From: Candidatus Zixiibacteriota bacterium | Lineage (GTDB): Bacteria; Electryoneota; B3-LCP | NCBI GenBank assembly: GCA_003599535.1 | Contig: QZKQ01000056.1 | Coordinates: 6,124 to 70,123, forward strand | Length of the DNA: 64,000 nt | Direction: 5' to 3' | Part shown: piece after piece, positions 42,280 through 60,426 of the stretch | Layout: the number at the start of each line of letters is the position of its first letter | Position numbering within the stretch: the first letter of the stretch is position 1 | The notes under the pieces: model-generated | Databases searched by the model: none | Told to the model about the DNA's origin: nothing | Seen by the model: the letters and a program-made list of their open reading frames with translations, nothing else | Program-made: the position numbers and the translations under genes

Positions 42280-42520
42280 CAGATCGTAGGGGCGATGCAT
42301 CTGCCCGGAAGAGGCCTCTGACCATGACCGCACCACGATTCTTTCCGAGGGCAACATGGTTCAACTCATTGTGCAGAGGCTTCGCCCTGGAACGATATGG
42401 CAGCCCATCCCCACGCAGGGCGAAGCATTTGCGCACCTTGTCCCGTGATGCAGGTCTTCCCAGAAATCGGTGACCCGGTCCAGCCATAAAGGGCGCATCC
42501 CGGCAAATGCATCGCCCCCA
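42280..42520. repeat. interspersed structured repeat element, copy B (inverted relative to copy A)
   Basis: gtaggggcgatgcatctgcccggaagaggcc (42286-42316) is the exact reverse complement of 12308-12338. Units cagaggcttcgccctg, gggcgaagcatttgcgca and ggcaaatgcatcgcccc follow in the same order as in A. Confidence 0.7.
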
Positions 42521-42731
42521 CACCACCGTTCATTCGTAATTCTAACAGCGAGGGAATCGCCGCCAGGAATCGCTACTCTAACGGGGTGATCTGTAGCAAT
42601 CAGGCTGAGACACTGCCTTTTCCAAACCGACCGGGCCTCATGGCCCCGCTTCAATCCTGGCGGCAACGCCGTAATCCCTTCAATCCATGATTCTGACAAT
42701 ACGCCTCGGCGAATAAATCACCACGACGACC

Positions 42732-45131: not shown

Positions 45132-45831
45132 ACGCATCCTGATCGTGGAAGACGAGGAGCACATCGCCCGAGGGGTGAAACTCAACCTGGAAGCGGAAGG
45201 ATACCGGGTGGAGGTGGTGGACGACGGGCGGGAGGCCATCGCGCATATCCGCCGCGCCGAACCCGACCTGGTCATCCTGGACGTCAACCTGCCCGGCGTG
45301 GACGGTTTTACCGTATGCGAGACGGTGCGGGGGGAAGGGCGGCGCGTCCCCATCTTGTTCCTGACCGTGCGGGACAGCGAGGACGACCGGGTGCGCGGCC
45401 TGGAACTGGGCGGGGACGACTACCTGGCCAAGCCCTTCAGCATCCGCGAACTGTTGCAGCGGGTCAAGGCCATCCTGCGGCGGGAAGAGTGGTACCGGCA
45501 GGATCCGGCGACCGGCAGCGTCCTGCAGTTCGGCCCCAACCGGGTGGACTTCTCCGCCTACCGGGCCTGGACGCCGCAGGGGGAAATCGCCCTGACCCAG
45601 AAGGAGTGCATGCTGCTGAAGCTGCTGGCGGAAAACGAGGGCCGGGTAGTGGACCGCAATACCATCCTGGACCAGGTGTGGGGCTACGACCGCTACCCGT
45701 CCACCCGCACCATTGACAACCTCATCCTGCGCCTGCGCAAGACCTTCGAAGCCGACCCCAAACGCCCCCGGCATATTCACTCGCTCTACGGGGCGGGGTA
45801 CAAGTTCACCCGGGAGGAGACGGAAGGATGA
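45124..45831 (+). CDS. OmpR/PhoB-family response regulator
   Basis: Receiver domain (ILIVEDEE...VILDVNLPG) with a winged-helix C-terminus (HIHSLYGAGYKF). It overlaps the kinase gene. Confidence 0.85.
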   Translation: MPERILIVEDEEHIARGVKLNLEAEGYRVEVVDDGREAIAHIRRAEPDLVILDVNLPGVDGFTVCETVRGEGRRVPILFLTVRDSEDDRVRGLELGGDDYLAKPFSIRELLQRVKAILRREEWYRQDPATGSVLQFGPNRVDFSAYRAWTPQGEIALTQKECMLLKLLAENEGRVVDRNTILDQVWGYDRYPSTRTIDNLILRLRKTFEADPKRPRHIHSLYGAGYKFTREETEG

Positions 45832-46235: not shown

Positions 46236-48212
46236 TTACTTGAGTAAAACCACCTTCTGCACCTGCGTAAAGTCGCCCGCCTCCAGCCTCACGAAATACG
46301 CCCCCGCCGCCAGCCCCGAGGCGTCAAACGTCAGCTCGTGATTTCCCGCCTCCCGCCAGCCGTCCACCAGCGTTCTGACTTCGCGGCCGGCGGTGTCGTA
46401 GACTTTCAGTCGGATGTGGCCGGCAGCCGGGAGCGTGAAGCCCAGAGCCGTCAGCGGATTAAAAGGGTTGGGCGAGGGCGGCAGCAGGCGGCACTCCTGC
46501 GGCAGCGGCGCGCCGAAGGCCGTGGCGGTGGGGGATTGCCAGTTGAGGAGGGTGCCTGAGGAATACTTGATGGTAACGTAGTCTTCATTTGTCCCCATCC
46601 CGTTACTGCTTCCTGTCACATAAATATTACCGGCTATATCGACATGAAGTCCACCCAATCCGTGATCGACAGCGTTGGCAGGTCCATTGTAACCCGCCAC
46701 CCACATCTGGACTCCGTTAAGGTTGTACTTGATTGTGGTAATATCGCCGTAACTGGATCCCATGACTATTACGTTGCCGCCATCGTCCAAAGCGAGCTTA
46801 TAGCCATAGTCATCAATTGCTCCTGGCCCACTGTAGTATGCCACCCACTGCTCCACGCCATAAGGATCGTACTTAATGGTGGCACAATCGTCGTTATAAA
46901 CAAAAATCTGAGTAAACCCGGTAATATATACATTACCAGCCCCGTCCACAGCCAAATCAAAAGCTTGATCAACCGCATCACCAAGACCATTAAATATCGC
47001 AATCCACTGTTGAATGCCGGCAGAGTCATATTTAATCGTAACATAATCCCAACTTGTCAAGCTTCCATAGCTGGTTCCAGTCACATAAATATTGTCCTCA
47101 GCATCCAATACTAAACTGCGAGCGCAATCTTCATAATTCCCTGATCCGTTATGCCGTGCCACCCATATCTGGTCACCTGACGAATTGTATTTAATGGTAG
47201 CGCAATCATCCGATGTTCCGACTCCATTGCTTTCCCCTGTGACATAAATATCGCCGTCACTGCCTGAGGCTAAACTGTAGGCACGATCGTTGTTAGATGC
47301 AGGGCCATCGTATCTTGCGGCCCATTGCTGGTTTCCCGTAGAATCATACTTGACAGTAGTATAATCTTCGTCACCGCCGATTCCACAACTATACCCAGTC
47401 ACGTATACATTGCCGTCATCATCAATGATAATAGCCACGGCAATATCATGTGAATTTCCAGGCCCATTGTAACGCGCAAGCCACTGACGGACCCCAGAAG
47501 AGTCGTATTTTATTGTGGCATAATCATAGTTTGATCCATTCCCGTAACTTCCACCTGTCACATAGACATTCCCCTGTTCGTCACATGCTAAATCATAGGC
47601 TTCGTCGTCATCATTGCCTGGCCCATTATATTGCGCAATCCACTGCTGGATTCCTGAAGAACTATATTTGATGGTCATATAATCATAGGATGATCCGTTT
47701 CCAGTACAGTAGCCTGTCACGAAGAGATTATCTGAATCATCCGCAACAATATTAGTGGACCAATCTTCGTAGTTTCCCATTCCGTTAAACCGCGCCGTCC
47801 ATTCCTGAATGACTCCTCCCGTCAGCATCTGCTTCTGGAACTGCAGCGTGTCCCCCGCCCAGACGGCGCCGGGGTGCAGCCCCACGTAGGCGCGCAGGGT
47901 GTAGTAGCCCACCGGCGACCCCTGCGTCAGCGGCACACTGCGTTCCCAAGTCATGGTTTCCCCCGCCTGGAAGGTCTGCGTCACCGGCCCAGGCGAGGGC
48001 CCGGCGCTGCCGCTGGGCCGGGAGCTCGTGCCCCAGATATCGGCGCTGATGGTCGGCCCCAGGTTGGTGACGGACAGGCGGTAGGAAAACGTGCCGCCGC
48101 TGTCGGGCAGGACTAGCGGCGTGAGTGGGGTCAGCTCGACGGTGAAGGGTTGGTTCCAACCCGCTGACGGCAGGAGCAGGAGAACCAGGGCGATAAGGGC
48201 GAGGCTTCGCAT
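46236..48212 (-). CDS. secreted SBBP beta-propeller-repeat protein with T9SS C-terminal sorting domain
   Basis: Signal peptide and more than 8 SBBP-like repeats (YNGPGN..D.A.....D..GNVYVTG.S.G.G...DY.TIKYDS.G...W). C-terminus ...AGAYFVRLEAGDFTQVQKVVLLK. Confidence 0.8.
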   Translation of the reverse strand: MRSLALIALVLLLLPSAGWNQPFTVELTPLTPLVLPDSGGTFSYRLSVTNLGPTISADIWGTSSRPSGSAGPSPGPVTQTFQAGETMTWERSVPLTQGSPVGYYTLRAYVGLHPGAVWAGDTLQFQKQMLTGGVIQEWTARFNGMGNYEDWSTNIVADDSDNLFVTGYCTGNGSSYDYMTIKYSSSGIQQWIAQYNGPGNDDDEAYDLACDEQGNVYVTGGSYGNGSNYDYATIKYDSSGVRQWLARYNGPGNSHDIAVAIIIDDDGNVYVTGYSCGIGGDEDYTTVKYDSTGNQQWAARYDGPASNNDRAYSLASGSDGDIYVTGESNGVGTSDDCATIKYNSSGDQIWVARHNGSGNYEDCARSLVLDAEDNIYVTGTSYGSLTSWDYVTIKYDSAGIQQWIAIFNGLGDAVDQAFDLAVDGAGNVYITGFTQIFVYNDDCATIKYDPYGVEQWVAYYSGPGAIDDYGYKLALDDGGNVIVMGSSYGDITTIKYNLNGVQMWVAGYNGPANAVDHGLGGLHVDIAGNIYVTGSSNGMGTNEDYVTIKYSSGTLLNWQSPTATAFGAPLPQECRLLPPSPNPFNPLTALGFTLPAAGHIRLKVYDTAGREVRTLVDGWREAGNHELTFDASGLAAGAYFVRLEAGDFTQVQKVVLLK

Positions 48213-48517: not shown

Positions 48518-48572
48518 AGGAACAACAAAGCCCCATATACGGGGCTCCCTCCAGCCCGCCGCCGGCGGGCTG
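48518..48572 (-). terminator. minus-strand terminator(s) at the end of the radical-SAM operon
   Basis: Minus-strand reading gives hairpin gcccgccggcggcgggc, then hairpin agccccgtatatggggct followed by TTGTTGTT. Confidence 0.5.
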
Positions 48573-48602: not shown

Positions 48603-49157
48603 CTACCCGAGTACCACCCTCAGGTCTTCCTCCGTATTCAGGTTGAACAGCCCCTCCCCGCCTTTCCTCGCCCCCACCGCCTCCCACGCCACTCCCTCCC
48701 AGACCGGGGCGAAGGAATAGTGGATTCCCGCCAGGCGCTCTTCCCACAGGGGCAGGGTGTCGCGGCGGTAGAGCGCCGCCAGCGGTTCGGGGCGGCCGTC
48801 GCGGGTCAGGCAGGCGAGAGGCCGGTGCGATCCGGCGGCCCGCAGCAGCGCCTCCAGGTCGCGCCCGGAGAGTCGCGGCAGGTCCACCGCCAGCACCAGC
48901 GCCCAGTCCGTGGGGCAGACGCGCAGCGCCGCCACCAGCCCGCCCAAGGGGCCGCAGCCGAGGCGCGCGTCGGGCAGCCCACCGGGCAGGTCGTCCCCCA
49001 CCAGCGCCGGGGCCCGGCCCAGCGCCGCTTCGATTCTCCTGGCTGTGGCAGCCAGCAGGGTCCGCCCGTCCAGCCGCAGGAAACGCTTGTCCCGGCCCAG
49101 GCGGGTGGACCGGCCGCCGGCCAGCACGTACCCGGTGACGTGGTGCCGGGGGTTCAC
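48603..49157 (-). CDS. mobA: MobA-like nucleotidyltransferase (molybdenum cofactor guanylyltransferase)
   Basis: GYVLAGGRSTRLGRDKRFLRLDGRTLL, the MobA LAGG.S.RMG.DK motif. GTG start overlaps the upstream stop (GTGA). The longer ORF 5-prime extension overlaps the neighbouring gene. Confidence 0.6.
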   Translation of the reverse strand: MNPRHHVTGYVLAGGRSTRLGRDKRFLRLDGRTLLAATARRIEAALGRAPALVGDDLPGGLPDARLGCGPLGGLVAALRVCPTDWALVLAVDLPRLSGRDLEALLRAAGSHRPLACLTRDGRPEPLAALYRRDTLPLWEERLAGIHYSFAPVWEGVAWEAVGARKGGEGLFNLNTEEDLRVVLG

Positions 49158-49984
49158 GGCTGCTCCCGGGGCGGATCCAGGTGGGCGAAATCCAGCGCCC
49201 GGACGTGGTGGACGGCCTTGCGGGCGAAGTTGGCCGCCGACACCGCGGTGTAGCCCAGCAGCAGTATCAGCCGCAGGGGGAGGTCGTGGCCGGTCATGGT
49301 GAGGCGGGGCAGCAGAATTTCGGCGGCGAAGAACAGGGTCAGCAGGTTCATGGCCGGGTGCACCAGCAGGGTCAGGACGAAGTCCGCCCGGCCGCGCTGT
49401 TGGGTGGTGACGAAGGCCGCGCCCAGGGCGGTGCGGAATTCCGGCCGGCGCAGCACGCCGGGGGCTTTGTCCAGCCGTTCCAGCAGGGTTTCCACCAGGC
49501 AGAAGCGGGGGTAAATGGTCCAGGCCGCCAGGAAGGCGCCGCACAGCAGCGGCACGGCGCTGCCGGTCAGGCGGAAGGCGCCCCAGCCCCAGAAGAAGTA
49601 CATGGCCGTCTTGGGCAGGTGGTCGAAGAGCTTGTCCAGGTATTCCCCGGCCAGGTTGCCGCCCTGGCCGCGGCGGCGGGCCACGTCGCCGTCGGCGGCG
49701 TCCAGGATGAAGTGGACCTGCAGCAGCAGCATGCCCAGCAGCCCCACCCGGGGGTCGGTCGAGACCAGCAGCAGCGCCCCGGGCAACCCCACAAGCAGCT
49801 TCAGCAGGGAGACGCCGTTGCCGGAAAAGCCCAGCGCGGCCAGCAGCGGCGCGACTTTCCGGGCCAGCGGCCGGGCCACCTTGCGGCGGTAAAGCGAGGT
49901 GTCGCAGTAGGGCGGAGCCGGATCCCAGGGCAGATCGGAAGGGCGGGGACGCTCTTCAGCCGCGTTTGCGGATGACGGTGACAC
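49154..49984 (-). CDS. CDP-alcohol phosphatidyltransferase family protein
   Basis: DAADGDVARRRGQGGNLAGEYLDKLFD, the D-G-x2-A-R-x8-G-x3-D-x3-D signature, and multiple TM segments. Confidence 0.75.
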   Translation of the reverse strand: MSPSSANAAEERPRPSDLPWDPAPPYCDTSLYRRKVARPLARKVAPLLAALGFSGNGVSLLKLLVGLPGALLLVSTDPRVGLLGMLLLQVHFILDAADGDVARRRGQGGNLAGEYLDKLFDHLPKTAMYFFWGWGAFRLTGSAVPLLCGAFLAAWTIYPRFCLVETLLERLDKAPGVLRRPEFRTALGAAFVTTQQRGRADFVLTLLVHPAMNLLTLFFAAEILLPRLTMTGHDLPLRLILLLGYTAVSAANFARKAVHHVRALDFAHLDPPREQP

Positions 49985-50786
49985 GGAATTGTCCGGGGAT
50001 GAAGTTCAGCGCGTTCAGCGCGCAGGAGGCCAGGTAATAGACGGTCAGGAATACTTTTCGGGCGCGGCTTTCGGGGGCGAAGTAATAGTGCAGGTATTCG
50101 AACTGGCCGGCGAAGCCGCGGGAATATTCGCGCACCGCACCGTCCCGGCGCAGTTGCGGGGGCAGGCAGTCTCGCAGCGAAGCCACGCCGTCCTTGGGGC
50201 CGAAAGGCCAGCGTCCGGCGCGCTGGGCGCGGCGCATGGCCAAGGGATGAATGCCGGAGCGGGTGTCGTTGTTGACGCTGATCACGCGGCCGGATTCCCG
50301 GGTCACCCGCAGCATTTCGGCCAGGGCGCGGGCGCGCATTTCCGGGCCGAAGTGATCCAGCACCCCCACGTTGAAGGCGGCGTCGAAGATTCCCGGCTTG
50401 AAGGGCAGGTGCAGGATGGAGGCCTGCACCGCGGCCGCAGGCAGCCCCAGGTCCCGGGCCCGCCGCTGGTCGAATTCCAGGGCGGCGCGGGAGACATCCA
50501 GCAGGACGACGCGGTTGCCGGCGCGAGCCAGCCGCAGGGAATGTTCCGCCGTGCCGCAGCCCGCCTCCAGGAGGCGTTGTCCCCGGGGGTCGCCGGTTTC
50601 GCGCCGCACCAGGCGCCAGGCCAGTTCCACGCCGCCGCCGCGCCGCAGGAAGCGCTTCAGCCGCGCTTTCAGGCTGAACAGGTCCGGTGCGGGTCCGGCG
50701 GCGACACGTTCCCAGTGCCGCGACCAGTTGGTCCGGGCTTGCCGGATGCGGGCGTCTTCATCCGCTGGGGGAGTGGGGTGATTCAC
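49956..50786 (-). CDS. class I SAM-dependent methyltransferase
   Basis: LLEAGCGTAEHSLRLARAGNRVVLLDVS...FDAAFNVGVLDHF. GTG start; 29-nt overlap with the upstream gene. Confidence 0.7.
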   Translation of the reverse strand: MNHPTPPADEDARIRQARTNWSRHWERVAAGPAPDLFSLKARLKRFLRRGGGVELAWRLVRRETGDPRGQRLLEAGCGTAEHSLRLARAGNRVVLLDVSRAALEFDQRRARDLGLPAAAVQASILHLPFKPGIFDAAFNVGVLDHFGPEMRARALAEMLRVTRESGRVISVNNDTRSGIHPLAMRRAQRAGRWPFGPKDGVASLRDCLPPQLRRDGAVREYSRGFAGQFEYLHYYFAPESRARKVFLTVYYLASCALNALNFIPGQFRVTVIRKRG

Positions 50787-51483
50787 CGGGGATTCCGAAC
50801 ATTTTCCGGGCCCGCCGCAGATCCGCGGGCGTGTCTATTTCCATCCAGGGGTAGCCGGTGACGTCCAGGGCGGTGACCGGGCAGTCCCCCCGGCGGATGA
50901 CCTCCACCACCGCCTCTTCGAAGTAGCGGCTGGGGCGCCCGGAAGCCAGGATGCCGGCGGCCGCCCCTCGCAGGGCGGCCAGCCCCGCGGGAGAAAACTT
51001 CATCAGGGGGAGGGATTCCCCCGCTGCCTCGGACACGGGCAGGGTTTTGCTCAGGTCCGTGACCCGGCCGCCCGCCTGGGCCATCTTCATCGCTTCGGCG
51101 TCCAGGGAAGAGCAGTCCAGGGGGAGGATGACGTCGCCGGAGGCTTCCATCAGGCGGTCGAACAGACCCTCGCTCACGACCAGGTCGGCGTGGGCCAGGA
51201 TCAAGGGGCCGGCCAGGAGCCCGGCGCCGGCGTGGAAGGATACCAGGTTGTCGGAAGCGGCGTAGCCAGGGTTGAACACCGGGTGCGCCCCCAGGGCCTG
51301 TGCCGCCGGAGCCACCCGGTCGCGTTGGTGCCCCGTGACCACCACGATCTCCCCGGCGCCGCGCCGGCGGAGTTGTTCCACCAGGCGAGCCAGCAGGGTC
51401 CGCCCGCCGACCTCCAGCAGCGGTTTGGGAGTATTCCCGCCCAGGCGTAATCCTTGACCGGCAGCCAGGATCAGGGCCTGCAT
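50758..51483 (-). CDS. sugar/alcohol-phosphate nucleotidyltransferase (NTP_transferase domain)
   Basis: MQALILAAGQGLRLGGNTPKPLLEVGGRTLL Gly-rich NTP-binding loop. ATG overlaps the upstream stop (ATGA). Confidence 0.65.
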   Translation of the reverse strand: MQALILAAGQGLRLGGNTPKPLLEVGGRTLLARLVEQLRRRGAGEIVVVTGHQRDRVAPAAQALGAHPVFNPGYAASDNLVSFHAGAGLLAGPLILAHADLVVSEGLFDRLMEASGDVILPLDCSSLDAEAMKMAQAGGRVTDLSKTLPVSEAAGESLPLMKFSPAGLAALRGAAAGILASGRPSRYFEEAVVEVIRRGDCPVTALDVTGYPWMEIDTPADLRRARKMFGIPGESPHSPSG

Positions 51484-52226
51484 CACACCTTCCGGCAGAT
51501 AAACAGGGACATGGTGGTGGTGGGCAGATCGTCGCCCCAGATGCCCTTCAGCCGGCGCAGCTCGGCGCGGGCGGCCATATGAGGCAGGCTCGCGAACAGC
51601 GCCAGGTCCAGCGGCCGCCAGGGGTGCTCGATGCTCTCCACGTGCAGCCCCGCGGCGGTGAACATGACGGTCCACTCCGGCTCGGAGGGATGGTATTCCC
51701 ACCCTTCCGCGACCGAATGCCGCTTCGCTTGCAGGGAATACGCCAGCCGGGCGCGTTCGTCGTCGGGGATGGTGGCCCAGTCTTCCACGCTGATCAGCCG
51801 ACCGCCGGGTTTGATGATGCGGGATATTTCCGCCACTGTGCGGGGGATAAGCTGCCGGGGCAGGTGATGGATGGTATCCATCTCCAGCACCCCGTCGAAG
51901 CTGGCGGTCTTAAGCGGCAGCCATTCGGCCGCCGCCTGGATCAGGGGCAGATCCCGTCCCAGGCGCGCCCGGGACAGGTGCAGGAAATTACGGGCCAGAT
52001 CCAGGCCGTAGTAGCGCATCGCCGGCCACCGGCGTTTGGCTGCGGCTCCCACGATGCCGGGCCCAATGCCCACTTCCAGCCAGCGTTCATGCTGGTGCTG
52101 CCCCAACAATTCCACCACGCGCGCATCCGCCGCGCTCCAGCCCCGCTTGGTATAATAACTATCCGCCTGGGCTTCCCAATGTTCGCGCATCCAGGCTGTG
52201 GCCTCACGTTCAGTCACCCGTCTCAT
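51483..52226 (-). CDS. class I SAM-dependent methyltransferase (Methyltransf_11-like)
   Basis: WLEVGIGPGIVGAA...YYGLDLARNF...FDGVLEMDTIHHL...IKPGGRLI. Start at 52226 (17-nt overlap) or 52190. Confidence 0.6.
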   Translation of the reverse strand: MRRVTEREATAWMREHWEAQADSYYTKRGWSAADARVVELLGQHQHERWLEVGIGPGIVGAAAKRRWPAMRYYGLDLARNFLHLSRARLGRDLPLIQAAAEWLPLKTASFDGVLEMDTIHHLPRQLIPRTVAEISRIIKPGGRLISVEDWATIPDDERARLAYSLQAKRHSVAEGWEYHPSEPEWTVMFTAAGLHVESIEHPWRPLDLALFASLPHMAARAELRRLKGIWGDDLPTTTMSLFICRKV

Positions 52227-53442
52227 GTCCCACCGAAAAATACGTTCTGGAACCTCGCATGAGCAGGCTTCCGCAATATAATTGTAGGTGCTCGGGATCC
52301 GTAGCGTTTTCGCCCAGAGAATCCCATAGTTCCCAGATAATATATTCGAGCAGCCGCGTTGAGAAATAGCAGTTGCGCCGGTCGAAGGCCCCGACTCCAT
52401 AGATAGACTGTCCGTCGAAAATGCACCCGCCGCCGCAGATGCCAATGGCGGCGCAATCTCGGCATTCCACGTTCAGGAGGGGGATATAGCGGCTCCAATC
52501 CCCTCCTCCGGCCTTCAGTCCGGCTTCGTTGACGCAGGTTGTACGTATGTTTCCGGGAAATACAACAATTTTTTCTCCTTGCGCGGCGCAGTCCCGCAGG
52601 CGGAATTTCCGGTGGACCAGGGGCGCCAGCCGGCGGTTGATCTGGTCCACGAACAGTCCGTGCTCCCGGGCAAAGGGGAAGATGCGGATCAGTGCTTCGG
52701 TGTACTCGGGGAGACGATCCCAGACCTGGCCGTGGTGGTGGTGCGGCAGGTTCAGGCCCAGGCTGGCGGGGCGGAATTCCCGCACGATGGCTTCGACCAG
52801 TTCGGGCAGGGTGGCGATGTTGTGATCACCCACCACGGCGGAGATGCCGTAGTCCAGGCCCAGGTCGCACGCCTCCTTCAGGGCCCGGGCGACCTTGGTG
52901 TAGGATCCCCCCGCCCCGATCCGCGCGGTGTTGTGGGCGAACAGGTCGCCATCCAGGGAAAACAGCACCCCCACCCCGTGATCCCGATAAAAGCGCAGTC
53001 GCGACCGTTCCGTGCGCGTCCCGTTGGTGAAGATGATGATCTTGCCGCGGACCGTCTCCACCAGGTGGTCCACCGCCTCGCGGTAGAGCTCCGGCTCGCC
53101 GCCGGTGATCAGCAGCAGGCCGCCCGGGCCGAGGTCCCGGTTGAATTCCCGGGCCAGCGCGGCGATCTCCTCCCGGCTCATGGCCGGACGGGTCAGCGGC
53201 GGGGCGTTGGCGTCGAAGGAGCAGTAGCTGCAGCGCAGGTTGCACTGCGAGGTGATGACCGCCTGCATGGTGCGGACCCGGGGCGGCGTCAGGGGGATCT
53301 CGATGACGCGCTCCGGTTCCGGCGGGATGGCGCTTCCCGCGGGGAAGTATTCCCGGGTCAGGCCGTAGGCACCCCAGCGGCAGACGTCCTGGCCGCGGCG
53401 GAACAGGTGGTATTTTTCCGGCAGGCGGAGGATTTCGTTCAC
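52210..53442 (-). CDS. radical SAM enzyme with SPASM/twitch auxiliary cluster domain
   Basis: CNLRCSYCSF (CxxxCxxC) and C-terminal CRDCAAIGICGGGC. Confidence 0.8.
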   Translation of the reverse strand: MNEILRLPEKYHLFRRGQDVCRWGAYGLTREYFPAGSAIPPEPERVIEIPLTPPRVRTMQAVITSQCNLRCSYCSFDANAPPLTRPAMSREEIAALAREFNRDLGPGGLLLITGGEPELYREAVDHLVETVRGKIIIFTNGTRTERSRLRFYRDHGVGVLFSLDGDLFAHNTARIGAGGSYTKVARALKEACDLGLDYGISAVVGDHNIATLPELVEAIVREFRPASLGLNLPHHHHGQVWDRLPEYTEALIRIFPFAREHGLFVDQINRRLAPLVHRKFRLRDCAAQGEKIVVFPGNIRTTCVNEAGLKAGGGDWSRYIPLLNVECRDCAAIGICGGGCIFDGQSIYGVGAFDRRNCYFSTRLLEYIIWELWDSLGENATDPEHLQLYCGSLLMRGSRTYFSVGHETGD

Positions 53443-54920
53443 GGCAGTTTTCCTTGCCAGTAGCTGCCCGCGGTAAAGGGCTGGTTGCGGGACGACAGCG
53501 ACACGTTGTCAATCAGGGCCTGGCGGTCGCCCTCGCCGGGGGCAAACCAGGGGCGGGATTCCCCGTCCCGCTGGTCGAACAGGCGCCAGATCATCCAGTT
53601 CAGAAACTCGCGTTCAAAGCGGCAGCGGTCGGGGTCTACCCCGTCCAGGCGCCCGGAGGCCTTGTAGGCGTCGTAGCGGCAGGCGCCCCCGCACACGGTC
53701 ATCGCGGGGCACAAACGGCAGTGGGGCATCTCCGGGGAGGAGAGCCCGGCCCACAGGCGGTGGTCGGGATGGTCCGGCGCCGGGAACGCCTCCCGCGGGT
53801 AAAACCAGCGCCGATCCGGGTAGCAGGAATCGCAGAATCCCATGACTCCGCCGGGAGCCAGCACCAGCCGCTCGCCGGGCGAAGAGCAGTCCTTCAGCAG
53901 GGGATTGCGGAACACGAAGGGACGCAACCGGCGGAAGGGCTGCTCGGCGTAGACGCCGTAGCGGCGGGTCACCTCCCAGCCTTCGATCAGGGCGGGGAAA
54001 GCCTGTTCGGTGGAGAGCTGGTAGGGATTGGGCTGGTCTCCGCGGCGGTGCAGGAAGGCGTTCAGACCGATGTCGTGGGGGTGGAAGCGGTCCACCAGGC
54101 ATTCCACCTGGCGGGCGAAGTCGTCCACGTTGTGCCGCCCCATGGTCACCGACAGCCCCACGCGGCAGCCGCGGGCGGTCAGCAGGTTCCAGGCCCGCTC
54201 GGAGGCGGCGAAAGCCCCTTCGCCCGGCGCGCGGCGCACCGCGTCGTTGACCGGGGGCAGGCCGTCCAGGGAGAGGATGACGAAGACGTCGTGGCGGGCC
54301 AGAACCTCCGCCTGGTACTCCGTCATCCCCAGCCCGGAGGTGGTGAAGCAGAACCGCACCTCGTCCTGGCGGAAGAAGGTCCGGGGGCGGGCCCGGCGCA
54401 GGACCTCCTCCACCAGGGGGAAGGCCAGCAGCGGCTCGCCGCCGTAGACCAGGAGGTCCAGCGGCTTGGTGGTATCGGTGCAGAGCCGGGCGCAGGTTTC
54501 CAGCCCCGCGACGATCTCCTCCCGGGTCATGGTGCGCGCTTCGCCCCGCCCGGTGCGCTGATGGCAGTAGCGGCAACTCAAGGCGCAGTCGGTGGTGGGC
54601 AGCAGGCAAATGAAGCGGAAGGTCCCCCGGCGGGCGGCGGCGGCCAGGGCCTGGTGGTCGGCCTGGTCGGTCCCGGCGCCCCGTGGCAGCAGGATTTTCT
54701 CTTCCCGCAGTCGGGCTGCCAGGTCCGGCGGCAGGCTTTCCCGCACGCCGCCCCGGCGCAGGTAGACCGCGGCCAGGTTCAGGGGGCGGTACAGGGCGAT
54801 CCAGTCGCCGCGCCGGGAAGCCCACAGGTCGCCGGACCACTCCCATTCCGGCGGCGCCGGGGGCAGGAGAGGGGATTCCGGCTGATCCGGGCCGGTTACG
54901 CGGAAAAAATCATCGTGCAT
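53439..54920 (-). CDS. radical SAM enzyme with SPASM domain and about 100-aa N-terminal extension
   Basis: CALSCRYCHQ and C-terminal CDSCYPD...HCRLCPAMTVCGGAC. The N-terminal extension precedes the rSAM core. 25-nt overlap with the upstream gene. Confidence 0.8.
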   Translation of the reverse strand: MHDDFFRVTGPDQPESPLLPPAPPEWEWSGDLWASRRGDWIALYRPLNLAAVYLRRGGVRESLPPDLAARLREEKILLPRGAGTDQADHQALAAAARRGTFRFICLLPTTDCALSCRYCHQRTGRGEARTMTREEIVAGLETCARLCTDTTKPLDLLVYGGEPLLAFPLVEEVLRRARPRTFFRQDEVRFCFTTSGLGMTEYQAEVLARHDVFVILSLDGLPPVNDAVRRAPGEGAFAASERAWNLLTARGCRVGLSVTMGRHNVDDFARQVECLVDRFHPHDIGLNAFLHRRGDQPNPYQLSTEQAFPALIEGWEVTRRYGVYAEQPFRRLRPFVFRNPLLKDCSSPGERLVLAPGGVMGFCDSCYPDRRWFYPREAFPAPDHPDHRLWAGLSSPEMPHCRLCPAMTVCGGACRYDAYKASGRLDGVDPDRCRFEREFLNWMIWRLFDQRDGESRPWFAPGEGDRQALIDNVSLSSRNQPFTAGSYWQGKLP

Positions 54921-55921
54921 AGGTAATTCTCATGCACCAGCCCCTTGCTTTCCTTCCAGCGGGCGGGAATGACCGGGTGGTCGCCGCGGACTTTGAAGCA
55001 GTATTCGTCCGGTTCGGCCGGATGGCCCAGCAGCCGCCGCGAGGCGCAGCCGCCGGCGCACACTTCAAGGGCGGAACAATCCCGGCAGACCGCGGGAACG
55101 GGCAATTCCATACTCTGCACCATTTTCCGGCGCTGGGTTTCGAAGCTGGAGAGCAGGTCGTCCAGCGTGGTGGTGCTGTGGTTCAGGTAAACGCAGGGTA
55201 CCACCTTGCCGTCGGCGTGCACCCGGAAGCTGTGCCTGCCGCAGGGGTTGCCGTGGTTGGCGCGCGGGTTGCCGATAGCGGCGTTGACCACCGGTTCGCT
55301 GCACGCGCTGAAGGCCGCCGCGCCAGCCATATCCGCGATGGCCTGCCAGAACTGCTCGTAGGTCGGCCGGTGATCGCGGCTGTGCACCGGCTTGTACACG
55401 TTGACCCGAAGGTTCAGGTCCAGTTTGCACGCCAATTCGGCCAGCTTCCCCATGGTGGCGGCGTTCTCCCGCATCAGGCAGCCCACCAGGCTGGCCTCGA
55501 CTCCCAGGTCGCGGCAGCGGGCCACCCCTTCCATGACGTAGTCGAACGACCCCTGCCCCCGCCACCGATCGTTGGTCTCGGCGTCGGGGTAGTCCAGGGA
55601 GAAGTCAATGTCGTGGAAGCGGCGCAGGTCCGCGTCGGGCAACTGGTGGACCGTCAATCCGTTGGTGGTCACCGCCAGGTCAATGCTCCGGTCCGACAGC
55701 TCTCGCACCAGCTCGGTGAACCGGGGATAGAGGATGCTTTCGCCGGTGCCGAAATTGATGCTTTCGACCGGCAGGCGGTTGACCAGGGACAGGACCTGCG
55801 CGTAATCCAGGTCATGGTACCCGTTGTGGGATCGGGAATAGCAGTGCGGGCAGGCGGCATTGCAGCGGTCGGTCAGCCCAATGCCGAAGGTGAAGCCGGG
55901 GGAGGTCCGATTTTCCCTCAT
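54896..55921 (-). CDS. radical SAM enzyme with SPASM/twitch domain
   Basis: CNAACPHCYS and C-terminal CRDCSALEVCAGGC. Confidence 0.8.
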   Translation of the reverse strand: MRENRTSPGFTFGIGLTDRCNAACPHCYSRSHNGYHDLDYAQVLSLVNRLPVESINFGTGESILYPRFTELVRELSDRSIDLAVTTNGLTVHQLPDADLRRFHDIDFSLDYPDAETNDRWRGQGSFDYVMEGVARCRDLGVEASLVGCLMRENAATMGKLAELACKLDLNLRVNVYKPVHSRDHRPTYEQFWQAIADMAGAAAFSACSEPVVNAAIGNPRANHGNPCGRHSFRVHADGKVVPCVYLNHSTTTLDDLLSSFETQRRKMVQSMELPVPAVCRDCSALEVCAGGCASRRLLGHPAEPDEYCFKVRGDHPVIPARWKESKGLVHENYLCTMIFSA

Positions 55922-56712
55922 CGTTCGATTCGTCCTATCAGAGCTTCTCGGGCAATGCGGGCGTAATATTCGGGTTGGTCCTCAATGTCGAACAGATCCA
56001 GGGTGAAGAAACCGGAATAGTGGATGGCCTGGAAGGCGGCGAGCAGCGCGGCGAAGTCCAGGTCCCCTTCGCCGGGAATCCGGTGGCGGTGTTCCCGGCC
56101 GCGGATGTCCTCGATATGGGTGTGAACGATCCGTTCGCCCCAGCGGACGATGTCCCGGCCGAGGTCGGGTTCGGTGATATGGGCGTGCCCTACGTCGAGG
56201 TTGACTTTCAGCCGGGGTGATCCCACCACCTGGATCAGCATTTCCATTTCCCGGGTGCCGGCGATCACCGTGCCCGGCTCCGGTTCCACGGCGAAGTCCA
56301 CCCCGAATTCCTCGGCGTAGCGGCACATCCGGGTGGTGAAGCGGCACATAGCCGCGAAGGCCTCTTCCCCCTCGCCTGCCAGCGATCCGGAGATGAAGGT
56401 TCGCACGCCCAGGTCGCGGGCCAGCTCCAGGCCGGCCAGGCCCTTGCGCTGCTTCTCCTGCCAGCCGGCGCGCTTGCCGTGGAAACTGACCGCGGCGGCC
56501 TGCAGGCCGCTCTCCTCCAGGATCCGGCGCAGGGTGGGAAAATCGCAGCGTCCGGGTGCATCGGGATCCAGGTCGCTGTGCTCCAGGCACAGTTCGACCC
56601 CGTCGTAGCCCAGCTCCCGCAGAGTCTGGAGCGCTTCGGGCAGACTCCGCCGCCGGAAACCGGACAGACGAAAACCGATTTTTCCCGCCAGAAACCAGTA
56701 GAGATCCTGCAT
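55918..56712 (-). CDS. xylose isomerase-like TIM-barrel sugar phosphate isomerase/epimerase
   Basis: About 264 aa with the AP-endo2/xylose isomerase-like pattern (GYDGVEL...HGK...VEPEPGT...DVGHAHI...HIEDIRG). Confidence 0.7.
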   Translation of the reverse strand: MQDLYWFLAGKIGFRLSGFRRRSLPEALQTLRELGYDGVELCLEHSDLDPDAPGRCDFPTLRRILEESGLQAAAVSFHGKRAGWQEKQRKGLAGLELARDLGVRTFISGSLAGEGEEAFAAMCRFTTRMCRYAEEFGVDFAVEPEPGTVIAGTREMEMLIQVVGSPRLKVNLDVGHAHITEPDLGRDIVRWGERIVHTHIEDIRGREHRHRIPGEGDLDFAALLAAFQAIHYSGFFTLDLFDIEDQPEYYARIAREALIGRIER

Positions 56713-56735: not shown

Positions 56736-58934
56736 TCATTCCGGGGCCGCCGCCTCGAGGTTGCACACGAAGCAGCGGAAGGGGTAGCCGAACCCTCCCG
56801 GCCCCTGCAATCCCGAGGGCAGCAGCTCGTTGACGTTGCTGCGCCGCACCCCGAAGAGTTCCGGCGCGGCGGCCTCGCGTTCCGGGAACCACCAGCCGCT
56901 GTCGCAGTGCACGATCCCCGGCGCGAACCGGTCGCTGACGCGAGCCCGCATCAGGCAACTGCCGAAGGGGCTGTACACCCGCACGGGGTCCCCGTCGCCC
57001 ACGCCGGCTTGCGCGGCCGTGTCGGGGTGGAGATCGGCCAGGGGTTCCGGCTGCCGGCGGCGCAGCGCGGGGAGGTTGCGGTGCTCCGAGCCGAAGTAGT
57101 AGGGCCGCCGCGAACCGCTAGTCAATATATATGGGTAATTTTGGACGCCGTATTGGTGACGGTAATCACCCATGTAATCATGGTAATGCGGGGTGGAAGC
57201 CAGCCCCATGGCCCGCAGCGCCGGCGAGTCCAGCTCGACCTTGGCCGACGGGGTGGCGAACCCCGGAGCGCCGTCGCCGCGCAGCCGGCCGCTCTCGTGT
57301 TTTCCGTATTCCAGCGGCGGCACCTGCGATCCCCGCTCGCGCAGTTCGGCGAAGGTGAGCCCCGAAGGCTTCAGCCGCTCTTCGATCCACTCCCCGGCAT
57401 CTTTCCAGGGGAAGCGGTGCGGCGCGACCCGGCGGCCCACGGCCAGGACGATCTCGGCGTCGCTGCGGCACTCCCCCGGCGGGTCCACCGCCCGGTTGAT
57501 GGTCCCCAACTGGGCGAAGTGAACGTACAGACTGTCCTTTTCCGGGTACATGGCCGCGGGCAGGATCACGTCCGCCAGGGCCACCGCTGCGGGGTTCAGG
57601 AACACGTCCACCATGACCATGAAATCCAGCGTGCCGAACAGTCGCAGCACCCGCCCGGGGTCGGCGAAGGAGGAGGGCACGATCCCCGTCCCCTGCAGCC
57701 AGGCCGCCTTGATAGGGTAGGGCTGCCCCGTCTCCATCTGGTCCAGCAGCACGTCGGGCTGGGCGTAGGGGTTGCCGGTCTCCAGCAGGGGGTAGCGTCC
57801 CGCCCCGAGCCGCGGGGATTGGACCTCGGGGAAGGCGGCCGCCTCGTCCCCGCGGCGCAGCACCCCGAAGGGCGATCCCTGCAGCACGTTGCCGCCGGGC
57901 GTTTCCAGGCTGCCGGTCAGGGCGACCAGGGCCAGCAGCCCGTGGATGGTCCCCAGGCAGCCCGGGTTCATGTCCACGGACACTCCCCACACCAGGGGGA
58001 AAGGCCGCGCCCACCCCAGGAAGCGCGCCGCTTCGGTCAGGGCGGCGGCGTCCACCCCGGTCAGTTCGGCGGTGCGCTCCGGGGTGTAGGGTTCGGCCGC
58101 CGTCCGCAGCGCTTCCAGGCCCAGGATCCAGTCGCGGCAGAAGGCCTCGTCCACCAGCCCGGCGTGGAACAGCTCGCGGATCATTCCCAAAGCCAGGGCG
58201 CCGTCGGAACCGGGACGCAACCGCAGCCAGTGCCGCGCCCGGGCCGCCGCGCCGGTCTTCTGCGGATCCACCACCACCAGCTCGGCGCCGTCCCGCAGGC
58301 GGTCGGTCACCCAGCCTCCGAACAGGCCGTCGGGGTTGGATACCACCGGGTTGGAACCCCACACCAGGAGGGTGCGCGGCGTCCGGTACACGCCTGGCGG
58401 GGTGGCGAATTCGCCCAGGTCGGGCAGCGGCAGGCCGCCCAGAACGGCCGTGGACAGGGCCACCCGGGGGCGATAGCAGGCGTTGCCGTTGCCGGGCCCC
58501 AGGCCGAAATAGTTGGGGCTGCCGAAACTCCAGGCCAGGCGGGGCAGCCAGGCGCCCACGTCGCGGGCCGTGCCCTTGCAGAAGATGACGGATTCCGGCC
58601 CAAAGCGCTGCCGGATCTCCAGGAGGCGCCGGGCCACCAGGTCCGCGGCTTCGTCGAAGCCGGCCCGCCGCCAGCGATTCTCACCCCGCGCCCCCACCCG
58701 GATCAGCGGATGGGTCAGCCGCTGGGGGTGGTACATGGCCTGGGCGACGTTGCGCCCCCGGGGGCACATCCGCCCGTCATTGTGACGGTTGTCCCGGTCG
58801 CCCTCCACGTCCACCAGCCGGCCTCCCCGGACCCGCAGCAGGACGCCGCAGCCGCCGTGGCATCCCGGCGGCGACCAGCAGACCGAGCGGATGATCTCGG
58901 CGTCGCCTTCCCGGCGGCGGTACCCGGAGCTCAT
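56736..58934 (-). CDS. molybdopterin (bis-MGD) oxidoreductase of the DMSO-reductase superfamily, cytoplasmic
   Basis: N-terminal 4Fe-4S motif CWSPPGCHGGCGV...C and a molybdopterin dinucleotide-binding C-terminal domain. The real start MSSGYRRREG at 58934 overlaps the upstream stop (ATGA). The 1029-aa ORF-track version has a non-coding extension. Confidence 0.75.
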   Translation of the reverse strand: MSSGYRRREGDAEIIRSVCWSPPGCHGGCGVLLRVRGGRLVDVEGDRDNRHNDGRMCPRGRNVAQAMYHPQRLTHPLIRVGARGENRWRRAGFDEAADLVARRLLEIRQRFGPESVIFCKGTARDVGAWLPRLAWSFGSPNYFGLGPGNGNACYRPRVALSTAVLGGLPLPDLGEFATPPGVYRTPRTLLVWGSNPVVSNPDGLFGGWVTDRLRDGAELVVVDPQKTGAAARARHWLRLRPGSDGALALGMIRELFHAGLVDEAFCRDWILGLEALRTAAEPYTPERTAELTGVDAAALTEAARFLGWARPFPLVWGVSVDMNPGCLGTIHGLLALVALTGSLETPGGNVLQGSPFGVLRRGDEAAAFPEVQSPRLGAGRYPLLETGNPYAQPDVLLDQMETGQPYPIKAAWLQGTGIVPSSFADPGRVLRLFGTLDFMVMVDVFLNPAAVALADVILPAAMYPEKDSLYVHFAQLGTINRAVDPPGECRSDAEIVLAVGRRVAPHRFPWKDAGEWIEERLKPSGLTFAELRERGSQVPPLEYGKHESGRLRGDGAPGFATPSAKVELDSPALRAMGLASTPHYHDYMGDYRHQYGVQNYPYILTSGSRRPYYFGSEHRNLPALRRRQPEPLADLHPDTAAQAGVGDGDPVRVYSPFGSCLMRARVSDRFAPGIVHCDSGWWFPEREAAAPELFGVRRSNVNELLPSGLQGPGGFGYPFRCFVCNLEAAAPE

Positions 58935-60268
58935 GGTTCGCTCCCGGCCAGCACGTTTTTCCGGCCGAAGCGGAGGCCGTAGTGAAAGTGCAGCGCCAGG
59001 ACCGTGTTCAGCAGGGGCGAACGGCTCCGGCGGCAGAACAGGTCCTTCAGCCCGGCGGCCGAGCGGGGCAGCAGCGCCTCGTCGCTGACGGCCTCGCCGA
59101 AACGCAGCCGGGCCAGTGGCGTGCCCGGCTCCGGGCGGATGTAGCTGAACTTGTAGCGGATCAGGCGCCGGCCCAGGCGCCTGCGAGCCCGCAGCAGGAA
59201 CCGCGCCGCGGCCAGGAAGTCCTTCCAGCCCGATCCCGGCACCGCGGCGAAGAAGTTGTAGGAGACCCGCGCCTGCCCGTCCTGCGCCAGCAGGCCCAGG
59301 GAACGGTGCAGCGATTCCACCGTGGTCGCCTTGCCCAGGGTTTTCAGGGCCGAGGCCGTGGCAGCGTCGGGGGACAGGTAGAACTCGTCGCAGCCGGACT
59401 GCCGGGCCAGGGCGATGTATTCGGCGGTCAGGTAGCGATCCTGCTGGTAGGCCCCCCAGCGCACCTTCACGCCGCGATCCAGCAGGGCGCGGCAGACGGC
59501 TTGGGCGTGCCCGGCGGGGTGGTTGAACACCGGGTCGCAGAAGAACACCCGCTGCACACCGTAACGTTGCGCCAGGGTTTCCACTTCCGCCGCCACCCGT
59601 GCGGGGTCCTTCAGGCGCAGTCCGGACCCGCTGAGCTGGGGATAGGTGCAGTAGGCGCAGGCCAGGGCGCAGCCGCGCTTGGTTTCCACCCCCACGGCGG
59701 CGCGGTCGGCGTAGCGGGCGTAGGGCGCCAGGTCCACCAGCTCCCAGGCGGGGGGCGGAATGCGGTCGAAGTCCAGCCTCTCTCCGGGGCCGGAAAAGGT
59801 CACCGTCCCCCGGTCGCGGTACCACAGGCCCGGAATCGCGGCGGGGCCGCCGCCCCGGCAGAGGAATTCCGGGAAGGAGACGTCCGCCTCCAGGAAGAAC
59901 CCGGCGGCCAGTTCCGGAACCCGCTCCAGCACCAGCCGGGGAAAGAGCGAGAAGCCGCTGCCGCCCACGACCAGGACGGCGCGCGGCGCCAGCTTGCGCA
60001 GTTCCTGGACGAAGCGCTGAAAGTGTTCGAAGTAAAAGAAGGGATCGCTGTACTTGGTGGTGTCAATATTGCGCAGGGACAGGCCGATGAGGTCCGGCTG
60101 AAAGTCCTGAATGACGGAGCGAGTATCCTCCAGCGGGCGGCGTGCCACGTTGGGGTCGAACAGGCGGAGGGTGTGGTCGGAAAGGTGCGCCGCCAGGCTG
60201 GCCAGCCCCAGGGGCGCCACCGGAGGTTCCCGGCGGCCCAGGTACGACTGCAAGAGCAGGAGGCGCAT
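58931..60268 (-). CDS. B12-binding-domain radical SAM enzyme (class B rSAM)
   Basis: N-terminal cobalamin-binding Rossmann-like domain and CALACAYCTY radical-SAM cluster. First gene of the operon. Confidence 0.8.
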   Translation of the reverse strand: MRLLLLQSYLGRREPPVAPLGLASLAAHLSDHTLRLFDPNVARRPLEDTRSVIQDFQPDLIGLSLRNIDTTKYSDPFFYFEHFQRFVQELRKLAPRAVLVVGGSGFSLFPRLVLERVPELAAGFFLEADVSFPEFLCRGGGPAAIPGLWYRDRGTVTFSGPGERLDFDRIPPPAWELVDLAPYARYADRAAVGVETKRGCALACAYCTYPQLSGSGLRLKDPARVAAEVETLAQRYGVQRVFFCDPVFNHPAGHAQAVCRALLDRGVKVRWGAYQQDRYLTAEYIALARQSGCDEFYLSPDAATASALKTLGKATTVESLHRSLGLLAQDGQARVSYNFFAAVPGSGWKDFLAAARFLLRARRRLGRRLIRYKFSYIRPEPGTPLARLRFGEAVSDEALLPRSAAGLKDLFCRRSRSPLLNTVLALHFHYGLRFGRKNVLAGSEP

Positions 60269-60426
60269 AATGGCGTTTTTCCGGGATGACTGCGGCCGAA
60301 GATCTCAGCGGTGCTAATAGTAATATAGCATGGATGAAACGGAAAGTCAAGTAAATAGTTGAGCAATGGGAAGGTTTTTTAACCCCGAAAGGATCGAATG
60401 AAAAGCCGTCCGCGAAATCCGGAATG

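Follow-up and report, generated by a model that had tools for sequence, protein, structure and literature searches.

What are three adjacent radical S-adenosylmethionine (SAM) genes of the SPASM type doing in an uncultured sediment bacterium, and is their substrate a peptide? The question is raised by a 64,000-nucleotide (nt) stretch of DNA from a Candidatus Zixiibacteriota bacterium (contig QZKQ01000056.1, positions 6,124 to 70,123; hereafter the window, with positions counted from its first letter), in which three neighboring minus-strand open reading frames (ORFs), here called A, B and C, encode radical SAM (rSAM)/SPASM enzymes. The three genes form the center of a tightly packed 11-gene minus-strand operon, from about 60350 to 48527, which looks built for a small molecule, its activation by cytidine triphosphate and its attachment to a membrane, rather than for peptide maturation. 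Their companions, namely a cytidylyltransferase, a cytidine diphosphate (CDP)-alcohol phosphotransferase, a TIM barrel, a molybdenum (Mo) enzyme, a B12-dependent rSAM and two methyltransferases, point to small-molecule or head-group biosynthesis. The operon is conserved and the domains of its products are identifiable; the cofactor and catalytic motifs of the rSAM enzymes, the molybdenum/tungsten (Mo/W) enzyme and the CDP-alcohol transferase are intact; the layout runs from soluble to membrane proteins; and parts of a peptide pathway are absent. We put at roughly 45% the probability that this cassette encodes an oxygen-independent pathway in which a methylated phospho-alcohol is built, CDP-activated and transferred to a membrane acceptor.

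The operon and its conservation

Read 5' to 3', the genes and predicted signals of the operon follow one another in this order:

60322..60350, minus strand: sigma-70-like promoter match, TTGACT-17-TATATT with an extended -10 TG, about 55 nt 5' of gene 1; a consensus match only, at 10 of 12 positions
58931..60268, minus strand: B12-binding (class B) radical SAM enzyme, 445 amino acids (aa); Pfam B12-binding and Radical_SAM
56736..58934, minus strand: single-subunit Mo/W-bis-pyranopterin enzyme of the cytoplasm, 732 aa, 4Fe-4S site at the N-terminus; Pfam Molybdop_Fe4S4, Molybdopterin and Molydop_binding; start codon assigned in this analysis
55918..56712, minus strand: xylose-isomerase-like TIM barrel (AP_endonuc_2), 264 aa; Pfam E 1.6e-34
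54896..55921, minus strand: rSAM/SPASM enzyme C, 341 aa, no N-terminal extension; Pfam Radical_SAM and SPASM, cysteine motifs
53439..54920, minus strand: rSAM/SPASM enzyme B, 493 aa; N-terminal domain of about 100 aa specific to the family, conserved C-terminal tail NQPFTAGSY; Pfam Radical_SAM, cysteine motifs
52210..53442, minus strand: rSAM/SPASM enzyme A, 410 aa; about 55 conserved aa at the N-terminus, C-terminal tail FSVGHE; Pfam Radical_SAM, cysteine motifs
51483..52226, minus strand: class I SAM-dependent methyltransferase MT1, 247 aa; Pfam Methyltransf_11 and Methyltransf_25
50758..51483, minus strand: NTP_transf_3 nucleotidyltransferase (NTP transferase), cytidylyltransferase-like, 241 aa; Pfam NTP_transf_3 and IspD
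49956..50786, minus strand: class I SAM-dependent methyltransferase MT2, 276 aa; domain and family hidden Markov model (HMM) matches
49154..49984, minus strand: CDP-alcohol phosphotransferase, 276 aa; Pfam CDP-OH_P_transf
48603..49157, minus strand: MobA-like molybdenum-cofactor guanylyltransferase, 184 aa; MobA HMMs; 4-nt overlap with the preceding gene
48527..48548, minus strand: terminator-like hairpin directly 3' of the last gene; pattern match only

The 11 genes overlap at their start and stop codons by 1-29 nt, with a single gap of 23 nt. From these overlaps, the promoter-like site and the 3' hairpin, the trio and its neighbors are predicted to form one transcription unit; terminator-like sites show no enrichment across the region overall.

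The coordinates, strand and cysteine strings that an initial annotation had given for the three rSAM genes are confirmed by the translations, as is their assignment to the rSAM/SPASM enzymes: each product has a CxxxCxxC motif and a complete set of seven SPASM cysteines, defined as Cx9-17GxxxxC, gap, CxxCx5Cx3C, gap, C. In A, the rSAM motif is C67-x3-C71-x2-C74 and the SPASM cysteines (285, 303, 327, 330, 336, 340 and 358) are invariant among 26 homologs. In B (rSAM cysteines 112, 116 and 119), SPASM cysteines 345, 363, 401, 404, 410 and 414 are invariant among 23 orthologs and C433 is kept in at least 90% of them, while in C (rSAM cysteines 20, 24 and 27) all seven (227, 243, 279, 282, 288, 292 and 308) are invariant among 30 homologs. 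Pfam Radical_SAM is significant in all three proteins and Pfam SPASM reaches threshold in C only. In the same 30 homologs, C has two further invariant cysteines beyond the ten cluster cysteines, Cys207 (ACSEP) and Cys335 (YLCTMI), which could be ligands of an extra site or occupy the open coordination position of an auxiliary cluster. The description of the trio as paralog-like holds for A and B (29% identity over 344 aa, E 2e-32) and fails for C, a superfamily-level relative only (E 3e-5 and 8e-3) that belongs to a wide family of 431 homologs in many genomic contexts. Since the C-B-A order is kept at every related locus examined, the adjacency of the three genes is not due to chance.

B orthologs begin with MHDDF and carry NQPFTAGSY close to their C-terminus, both nearly invariant (window 53439-53480 and 54900-54920). 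A and distant homologs end in FSVGHE (window 52210-52240), which matches the tail of B, and F[ST][VA]G[HS][EY] looks like a sequence signature of this rSAM subfamily. The idea that NQPFTAGSY is a fused substrate peptide was rejected, since the homologous tail is found in A and in distant homologs. The AlphaFold2 (AF2) model packs the tail of B against the protein with fair confidence and, together with its presence in relatives, this placement makes the tail look like a structural element of the family.

About 34 ortholog clusters of B were found among 5.8 billion proteins, beyond which identity drops sharply to 28%, and the family is present in 8 of 185,579 GTDB species representatives, including LCP-89, Calditrichaeota and Ca. 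Tariuqbacter. It is hosted by a number of uncultured phyla from sediment, namely Zixibacteria, LCP-89, Calditrichaeota and Tariuqbacter, together with a second clade. The cassette occurs in two forms. Type I is carried by Zixibacteria, LCP-89, Calditrichaeota and their relatives. Its ten genes, which begin with the B12-rSAM and end with the CDP-alcohol transferase, keep one order at no fewer than 15 distinct loci, in all eight of those species and on further metagenome contigs, at 37-71% protein identity and between unrelated flanks; the TIM gene is missing from three of these loci and MT1 from one, and the Mo/W enzyme is adjacent in all. Type II (about 12 loci) has the order (Mo)-TIM-C-B-A-MT-B12-NTP-MT-CDPOH, in which the B12 gene has shifted to a place after MT1 and before the NTP transferase, and three of its loci lack the Mo gene. 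Its proteins are 32-36% (A), 39-44% (B) and about 40% (C) identical to those of the window. That the gene set survives both divergence and reshuffling indicates a functional unit, and its retention in type II despite reordering suggests selection on the set itself and not mere synteny.

In type II, a MobA-like gene and/or an FG-GAP protein follows the CDP-alcohol transferase gene (CDPOH); the MobA-like gene is in this position at loci L043 and L100. The window protein scores 68-74 bits on MobA HMMs with cut-offs of 152-164, and MobA is not found at other type I loci. It was rejected as a core part of the cassette because it is present only in the window and at some type II loci. Type II copies are often preceded by a regulator combining an ArsR helix-turn-helix with a methyltransferase fold, which we take to be SahR-like, and by S-adenosylhomocysteine (SAH) hydrolase (AhcY; L099 6894-9223, L087 4518-5468, L044 736-3095 and L069 2411-4291). 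This pairing suggests that SAM-cycle capacity is coupled to a SAM-hungry operon. Upstream of the type I copies L001 (4261-4509) and L003 (3969-4268) lies a PAS-domain protein with a conserved cysteine-rich tail (LIPICAxCKKIRDDxGxW...FSHGICPxC), which could be a local regulator. The copy in the Black Sea metagenome-assembled genome BS750m-G18 (L009) has three intergenic insertions of 350-530 nt at positions where genes overlap at other loci (5115-5548, 7709-8238 and 11510-11862).

A putative phospho-alcohol pathway

The individual steps of the proposed pathway are all ones that we infer from gene content and family resemblance. The TIM barrel would rearrange a phosphorylated sugar-like or keto-acid-like precursor, the phosphorylated starting point being assumed because the cassette encodes no kinase. 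A, B and C would then remodel this precursor, possibly by dehydrogenating it, by forming a C-C or C-X bond, or by closing or contracting a ring, and the B12-radical SAM enzyme would C-methylate it. The Mo/W enzyme, which resembles acetylene hydratase and Psr, may hydroxylate, hydrate or reduce the intermediate without O2, and MT1 and MT2 may O- or N-methylate it. Finally, the nucleotidyltransferase would convert the product into a CDP-alcohol, from which the CDP-alcohol phosphotransferase would pass the phospho-alcohol to a lipid or another alcohol, so that a phosphodiester solute or a new polar head group results.

The sequences of the NTP transferase and of the CDP-alcohol transferase find their best matches in the two halves of IPCT/DIPPS and in archaetidylinositol-phosphate (AIP) and phosphatidylinositol-phosphate (PIP) synthases, which is consistent with the proposed activation and transfer. 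Among NCBIfam models, the former scores highest on the inositol-1-phosphate cytidylyltransferase part of IPCT/DIPPS (68.5 bits, cut-off 580). The latter scores 29 bits on its Pfam model, against a cut-off of 22, and its best HMM is archaetidylinositol-phosphate synthase (45.7 bits, cut-off 180). It is the only integral membrane protein of the operon, with at least four hydrophobic segments, and its DxxDGxxAR-x9-GxxxDxxxD motif, intact in the window protein and in 10 copies from cassettes of both types, lies within a polytopic membrane protein as is characteristic of the family.

The B12-binding rSAM is probably a C-methyltransferase, judging from its nearest HMMs, BzaD (257 bits, cut-off 450) and a "lipid biosynthesis B12/rSAM" model (179 bits, cut-off 360), and its best PDB matches, TsrM, AprD4 and TokK. 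Three Pfam domains, an FeS cysteine motif and an aligned Cys153 place the Mo/W enzyme in the Mo/W-bisPGD (DMSO reductase) superfamily. Its best PDB matches are acetylene hydratase (2e7z, E 5.9e-64 in two segments), PsrA and FdhF, and Cys153 aligns with a cysteine in both acetylene hydratase and PsrA that we take to be a metal ligand; the protein has no Tat motif and the operon encodes no partner subunit for it. The TIM barrel is predicted to be of the sugar or keto-acid isomerase, epimerase or dehydratase type from weak matches to ketose 3-epimerases, IolE, IolO and hydroxypyruvate isomerase. MT1 reaches no NCBIfam equivalog and has generic PDB neighbors, including a bacterial phosphatidylethanolamine N-methyltransferase at 36 bits; for both MT1 and MT2, the HMM and PDB comparisons gave no assignment to O-, N- or C-methylation. 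The SahR-like regulator and AhcY that abut several type II copies fit a SAM-hungry pathway.

More distant relatives of A, B and C occur mostly beside sugar-phosphate, nucleotide and phospho-transfer enzymes. They accompany a TIM barrel and an NTP transferase at L016; a class II aldolase, an aldehyde dehydrogenase, an adenylylsulfate (APS) kinase, a sulfotransferase and a nucleoside phosphorylase at L017; and a carbamoyltransferase, a DegT aminotransferase and an amidohydrolase at L015. A D-2-hydroxyacid dehydrogenase gene is inserted between the rSAM genes at seven metagenome loci, including human-gut contigs, and at the Aminicenantes locus L013. At L056 and L057, the neighbors are an NTP transferase, a methyltransferase, a LicD-type phosphotransferase, a PhnA-like hydrolase and an aminotransferase. 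These two loci repeat the logic of nucleotidyl activation followed by transfer by way of a non-homologous transferase, which is the strongest contextual argument that the rSAM enzymes serve a small phosphorylated group destined for a lipid or glycan.

The PhnA-like protein of L056 (4474-5739) is near full length and scores 334 bits on a phosphonoacetate-hydrolase model with a cut-off of 408, and the LicD protein of the same locus (8515-9255) is most similar to diacylglycerol cholinephosphotransferase; together they hint at phosphonate-like or phosphocholine-like head-group chemistry in a locus that has no phosphoenolpyruvate (PEP) mutase. Other distant loci have different surroundings. The human-gut C-A-(2-hydroxyacid dehydrogenase)-B trios (L058 882-10379, L065 and L089) adjoin a CAP12/Pycsar-type TIR protein and a metallo-beta-lactamase-fold protein, and the trio at L030 (5494-16327) has a caspase-like gene on one side and a trypsin-NACHT-HEAT gene on the other. 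The rSAM trio may serve in defence at such loci.

Several observations weigh against the phospho-alcohol pathway. No carrier of the cassette comes from a cultured organism, and every functional HMM match falls far below its family cut-off, so that the substrate classes named above are guesses. The nearest characterized relatives of B, by sequence and by fold, all act on peptides or proteins, and it would be unusual for one small molecule to take three SPASM enzymes. The absence of the Mo gene from three type II loci and of the TIM gene from three type I loci implies that those two steps are not obligatory. Finally, a minority of distant trio relatives lie in RiPP-like (ribosomally made, post-translationally modified peptide; L014 and L018) or defence-like (L030 and L058) contexts.

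A more specific version of the pathway, which we regard as tentative, is a hitherto undescribed route, strictly anaerobic, whose product would be a new polar head group or phosphodiester metabolite. Four radical-SAM enzymes, joined by the W/Mo enzyme in most versions, would there replace oxygenases, and the product would be CDP-activated and installed on a membrane lipid. That product could be a C-methylated or ring-contracted cyclitol-like alcohol. A product with an unusual C-P or C-As bond is less likely: the PhnA-like, ArsM-like and PhpK-like echoes among relatives are only faint hints.

Peptide maturation and other explanations

The initial annotation had taken a triple SPASM array as characteristic of peptide or cofactor maturation, and the relatives of B lend this idea some substance. 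Among solved structures, B is most similar in sequence to CteB (PDB 5wgg, E 9.5e-16), and its AF2 model (pLDDT 89.7) best matches the folds of TigE (PDB 8vpo, E 1e-16) and CteB (E 2e-15), followed by anaerobic sulfatase-maturating enzyme (anSME) and ChlB. The alignments with CteB and TigE extend beyond the rSAM-SPASM core, and the N-terminal domain of B is in the position of the RiPP recognition element (RRE) of these two enzymes. The best HMMs of B are RiPP maturases (FibroRumin, nif11, PapB and SCIFF models, all below cut-off), the best of C are MftC (76 bits, cut-off 265) and GeoRSP (75 bits, cut-off 400), and some distant relatives lie beside Frankia_peptide or ScmC-like genes. The operon could thus belong to a RiPP or peptide-derived cofactor pathway whose precursor is encoded elsewhere, with the N-terminal domain of B as a divergent leader-binding domain and the other genes tailoring an excised fragment. 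We consider this unlikely given the content of the cassette and the properties of the B N-terminal domain.

The content of the cassette offers little to a peptide. As had been noted at the outset, there is no precursor-peptide ORF within the operon, where genes overlap or abut and no small ORF is conserved. When ORFs of 15-150 aa from the cassette and its 1.5-kb flanks were compared all-against-all by BLAST at 10 loci, and flanking ORFs inspected by eye, none was conserved inside the cassette or within 1.5 kb on either side except shadow ORFs inside large genes; most loci lack the physical room for one, and type II loci are equally tightly packed. To our knowledge, known peptide-derived cofactor systems keep the precursor gene in cis. 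Neither type I nor type II cassettes contain a leader peptidase, an exporter or a stand-alone RRE, and no maturase cut-off was reached: the best scores on the SCIFF, PapB, nif11, FibroRumin and QhpD models were 86.3, 82, 80, 75 and 57.9 bits, respectively, against cut-offs of 400, 519, 340, 425 and 453. Across the curated maturase models, which also included MftC, PqqE and anSME, the scores of A, B and C are 4-10 fold below the cut-offs.

The N-terminal domain of B had been proposed as a possible RRE/PqqD-like domain. The extension of about 100 aa is real: the rSAM core starts near residue 105 and the extension is conserved in 23 orthologs, with the pattern W..ALYRPLNLGL.YL...EH..L...AR.G.FRF. 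Its resemblance to an RRE was not detectable in any of five tests. Pfam PqqD matched 0 of 21 B N-terminal domains at E up to 10, whereas it matched 2 of 10 N-termini of CteB-like relatives used as a control. A profile of the domain had no match in the PDB and, among 1.84 billion proteins, found only its own family (four representatives), and hhalign gave a probability of 0.2% for its alignment with CteB-like N-termini. The AlphaFold model of the domain (pLDDT 87) has a beta-beta-beta-beta-alpha-beta-alpha arrangement, for which Foldseek returned no significant match. Its top matches were RRE proteins (TbiB1, PbtF and ThcOx; E at least 0.23, TM score about 0.3), the best being TbiB1 at a non-significant E of 0.23, which may be counted in favor of a leader-binding domain. 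A also has a conserved N-terminal extension, of about 55 aa. Type II B has 422-427 aa and a core that begins at residue 61; the whole protein is shorter by about 65 aa and its N-terminus by about 45 aa, which suggests that the extra N-terminal piece is an elaboration of type I rather than a requirement of the pathway and further argues against leader binding.

A second rival takes the substrates to be lipids. In such a scheme, the rSAM enzymes would act on lipid hydrocarbon chains by cross-linking, cyclization or methyl branching, in the manner of Tes, Mss, Grs or lipid methylases, and the CDP module would add the head group. Radical SAM enzymes are known tools for modifying inert lipid chains, as described in a review (PMC13459092), the hosts are all anaerobic sediment lineages, and the operon does include a membrane CDP-alcohol transferase. 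The B12-rSAM also matches the NCBIfam "lipid biosynthesis B12-binding/radical SAM" model, yet its 179 bits are half of the cut-off of 360. Neither cassette type has an acyl, prenyl or glycerol-lipid gene (Fab, ACP, PlsX/Y/C, GGGPS or UbiA type). No lipid-modifying enzyme is described among the solved sequence matches of A, B and C or the top 50 fold matches of B; the structure of tetraether synthase was presumably among the PDB entries searched. Judged from PDB and fold matches and from gene content, with no direct alignment with Tes or Grs references, the trio does not belong to the Tes, Mss, Grs or Gms enzymes. Both the soluble TIM barrel and the NTP transferase, as well as the neighborhoods of distant relatives, point to water-soluble phosphorylated substrates instead, and we find chain modification distinctly improbable.

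Two further explanations assign the trio to proteins or to nucleotides. A, B and C may be protein maturases that act on the co-encoded Mo/W enzyme or another operon protein, as anSME does on sulfatases and QhpD on QhpC. The Mo/W enzyme is indeed adjacent in all type I loci, anSME is among the best fold matches of B (TM score 0.73-0.76 relative to the target) and C weakly matches a "tungsten cofactor oxidoreductase radical SAM maturase" model (52 bits, cut-off 380). The occurrence of the trio without any Mo gene, at three type II loci and in all more distant cassettes, weakens this idea, which also leaves unexplained why the cytidylyltransferase/CDP-alcohol transferase/methyltransferase module always travels with the trio. 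Scores on anSME and QhpD HMMs are 36-58 bits, against cut-offs of 349-453. The scenario of anSMEs beside sulfatases finds no more footing, as A and B score 50.5 and 36.3 bits on TIGR03942 (cut-off 349) and a scan of the cassette genes and some 40 window ORFs found no sulfatase family. We consider protein maturation very unlikely. Alternatively, the trio might modify a nucleotide to give a signalling or antiviral molecule, as viperin does, a proposal to which we give hardly any weight. It draws on distant trios beside TIR, caspase, NACHT and metallo-beta-lactamase genes, on others beside NUDIX, adenosine deaminase or nucleoside phosphorylase genes, and on weak pVip matches of A, B and C in PADLOC (25-47 bits). 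These matches are confined to the generic rSAM core, the defence-like contexts concern relatives at 25-36% identity only, and the window cassette is conserved in a housekeeping-like manner with no defence effector kept beside it. Membership of a known defence system was rejected, since PADLOC returned generic viperin-core matches only and no specific system model. Whatever probability remains outside the phospho-alcohol pathway and these four rivals belongs to something else.

Surroundings and known systems

Proteins with type IX secretion system (T9SS) C-terminal sorting domains (SBBP or PQQ-like beta-propellers and a beta-helix) flank the cassette at 46236-48212 (minus), 60637-62430 (minus), 3853-5700 (plus) and 19928-20647 (plus), and other T9SS-sorted proteins lie just 5' of it at L001 (1422-3551), L002 (1859-3898) and L005 (3925-4329). 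This proximity could be a coincidence in T9SS-rich genomes or a loose association. A tetrapyrrole cluster occupies 32553-44009 on the plus strand, with HemC-like (32553-33479), HemE (34228-35268), amine-oxidase/HemY-like (37545-39008), HemA (39679-41124), HemB (41108-42085) and HemL (42732-44009) genes, and is followed by a HisKA kinase and an OmpR-type regulator at 44025-45831. A functional link of the cassette to the heme-biosynthesis genes or the two-component system was rejected, since these neighbors are not conserved at other loci. Farther away, a 999-aa ORF (13484-16483, plus) encodes a SAM-methyltransferase domain and a C-terminal TIR domain within the only low-GC stretch of the window (14001-16000, with 48%; the remainder has about 63%); the gene may be of a defence type and acquired horizontally. 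A C_GCAxxG_C_C protein (Pfam "putative redox-active protein") is encoded at 1764-2609 (plus), 47 kb from the cassette. The NTP transferase and methyltransferases of the cassette weakly match the NCBIfam models "DVU_1551" and "DVU_1556", by name from one Desulfovibrio neighborhood, which we believe includes a C_GCAxxG_C_C protein; a literature search on this neighborhood found nothing. No tRNA, tmRNA or Rfam family at the gathering threshold was found in the whole window (1-64000).

If the phospho-alcohol pathway is correct, the cassette is a compact, expressible operon for a membrane head group or metabolite of abundant uncultured anaerobic sediment bacteria and a possible source of a new lipid biomarker. 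It would also extend SPASM radical-SAM enzymes, now annotated almost reflexively as peptide maturases, to new small-molecule chemistry, and give a function to an orphan acetylene-hydratase/Psr-like Mo/W enzyme. For genome mining, the locus is a caution that adjacent SPASM genes alone do not indicate a RiPP cluster.

A full-text literature search found no description of this gene set, and the outline of a 2026 review of lipid-modifying radical-SAM enzymes (PMC13459092) has no section on such a cassette. CteB, a SCIFF thioether synthase, and TigE, a cyclopropylglycine synthase (PMC10878394), share with B an N-terminal domain, the rSAM barrel and seven SPASM cysteines for two auxiliary clusters. 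B differs from them in its low identity (15-20%), in an N-terminal domain with no detectable RRE/PqqD signature and in its setting among small-molecule enzymes, in a cassette that has no precursor, peptidase or exporter gene. A similar pattern applies to mycofactocin and PQQ synthesis: C has MftC as its best HMM and also matches PqqE, but the scores (76 bits, cut-off 265, and 39 bits, cut-off 381) are too low for membership and there are no MftA/MftB or PqqA/PqqD genes. The families on which gene 1 scores best are BzaD, the C-methylase of the B12 lower ligand, and NCBIfam "lipid biosynthesis B12-binding/radical SAM"; both scores are below cut-off, and the cassette has no other bza or cob genes.

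The Mo/W enzyme resembles acetylene hydratase (2e7z) and PsrA (2vpw) in its length (about 730 aa), N-terminal FeS motif and aligned cysteine, and shares with acetylene hydratase the lack of a signal peptide and partner subunits. It differs in its Cx5Cx3C FeS motif and in a similarity restricted to two segments (E 6e-64), and what we take to be the position of the catalytic Asp of acetylene hydratase is a His. The end of the cassette is most reminiscent of IPCT/DIPPS, the archaetidylinositol-phosphate/PIP synthases and Kennedy-type pathways, which likewise combine a cytidylyltransferase with a membrane CDP-alcohol phosphotransferase that has an intact motif; the spacer in this motif is 9 residues in the cassette, whereas we take the canonical spacer to be 8. 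The scores of the cassette proteins are 23-68 bits where the cut-offs are 170-580 (on NF041135, with its cut-off of 580, they are 68.5 and 23 bits), the two activities of IPCT/DIPPS are on separate genes interleaved with methyltransferases, and the cassette has no inositol-phosphate synthase (MIPS-like) gene, placing it outside IPCT/DIPPS proper.

In clusters of LicC or PntC with LicD or a CDP-alcohol transferase, a small phospho(no)-alcohol is made, activated with CMP and transferred to a lipid or glycan, the same logic as proposed for the cassette, which differs in lacking PEP mutase and in having four radical-SAM enzymes and a Mo/W enzyme. The parts of the cassette come from known superfamilies and none reaches a curated family threshold. 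It is thus best described as a radical-SAM-rich small-molecule pathway with a CDP-alcohol end module, neither a member of a named system nor categorically new.

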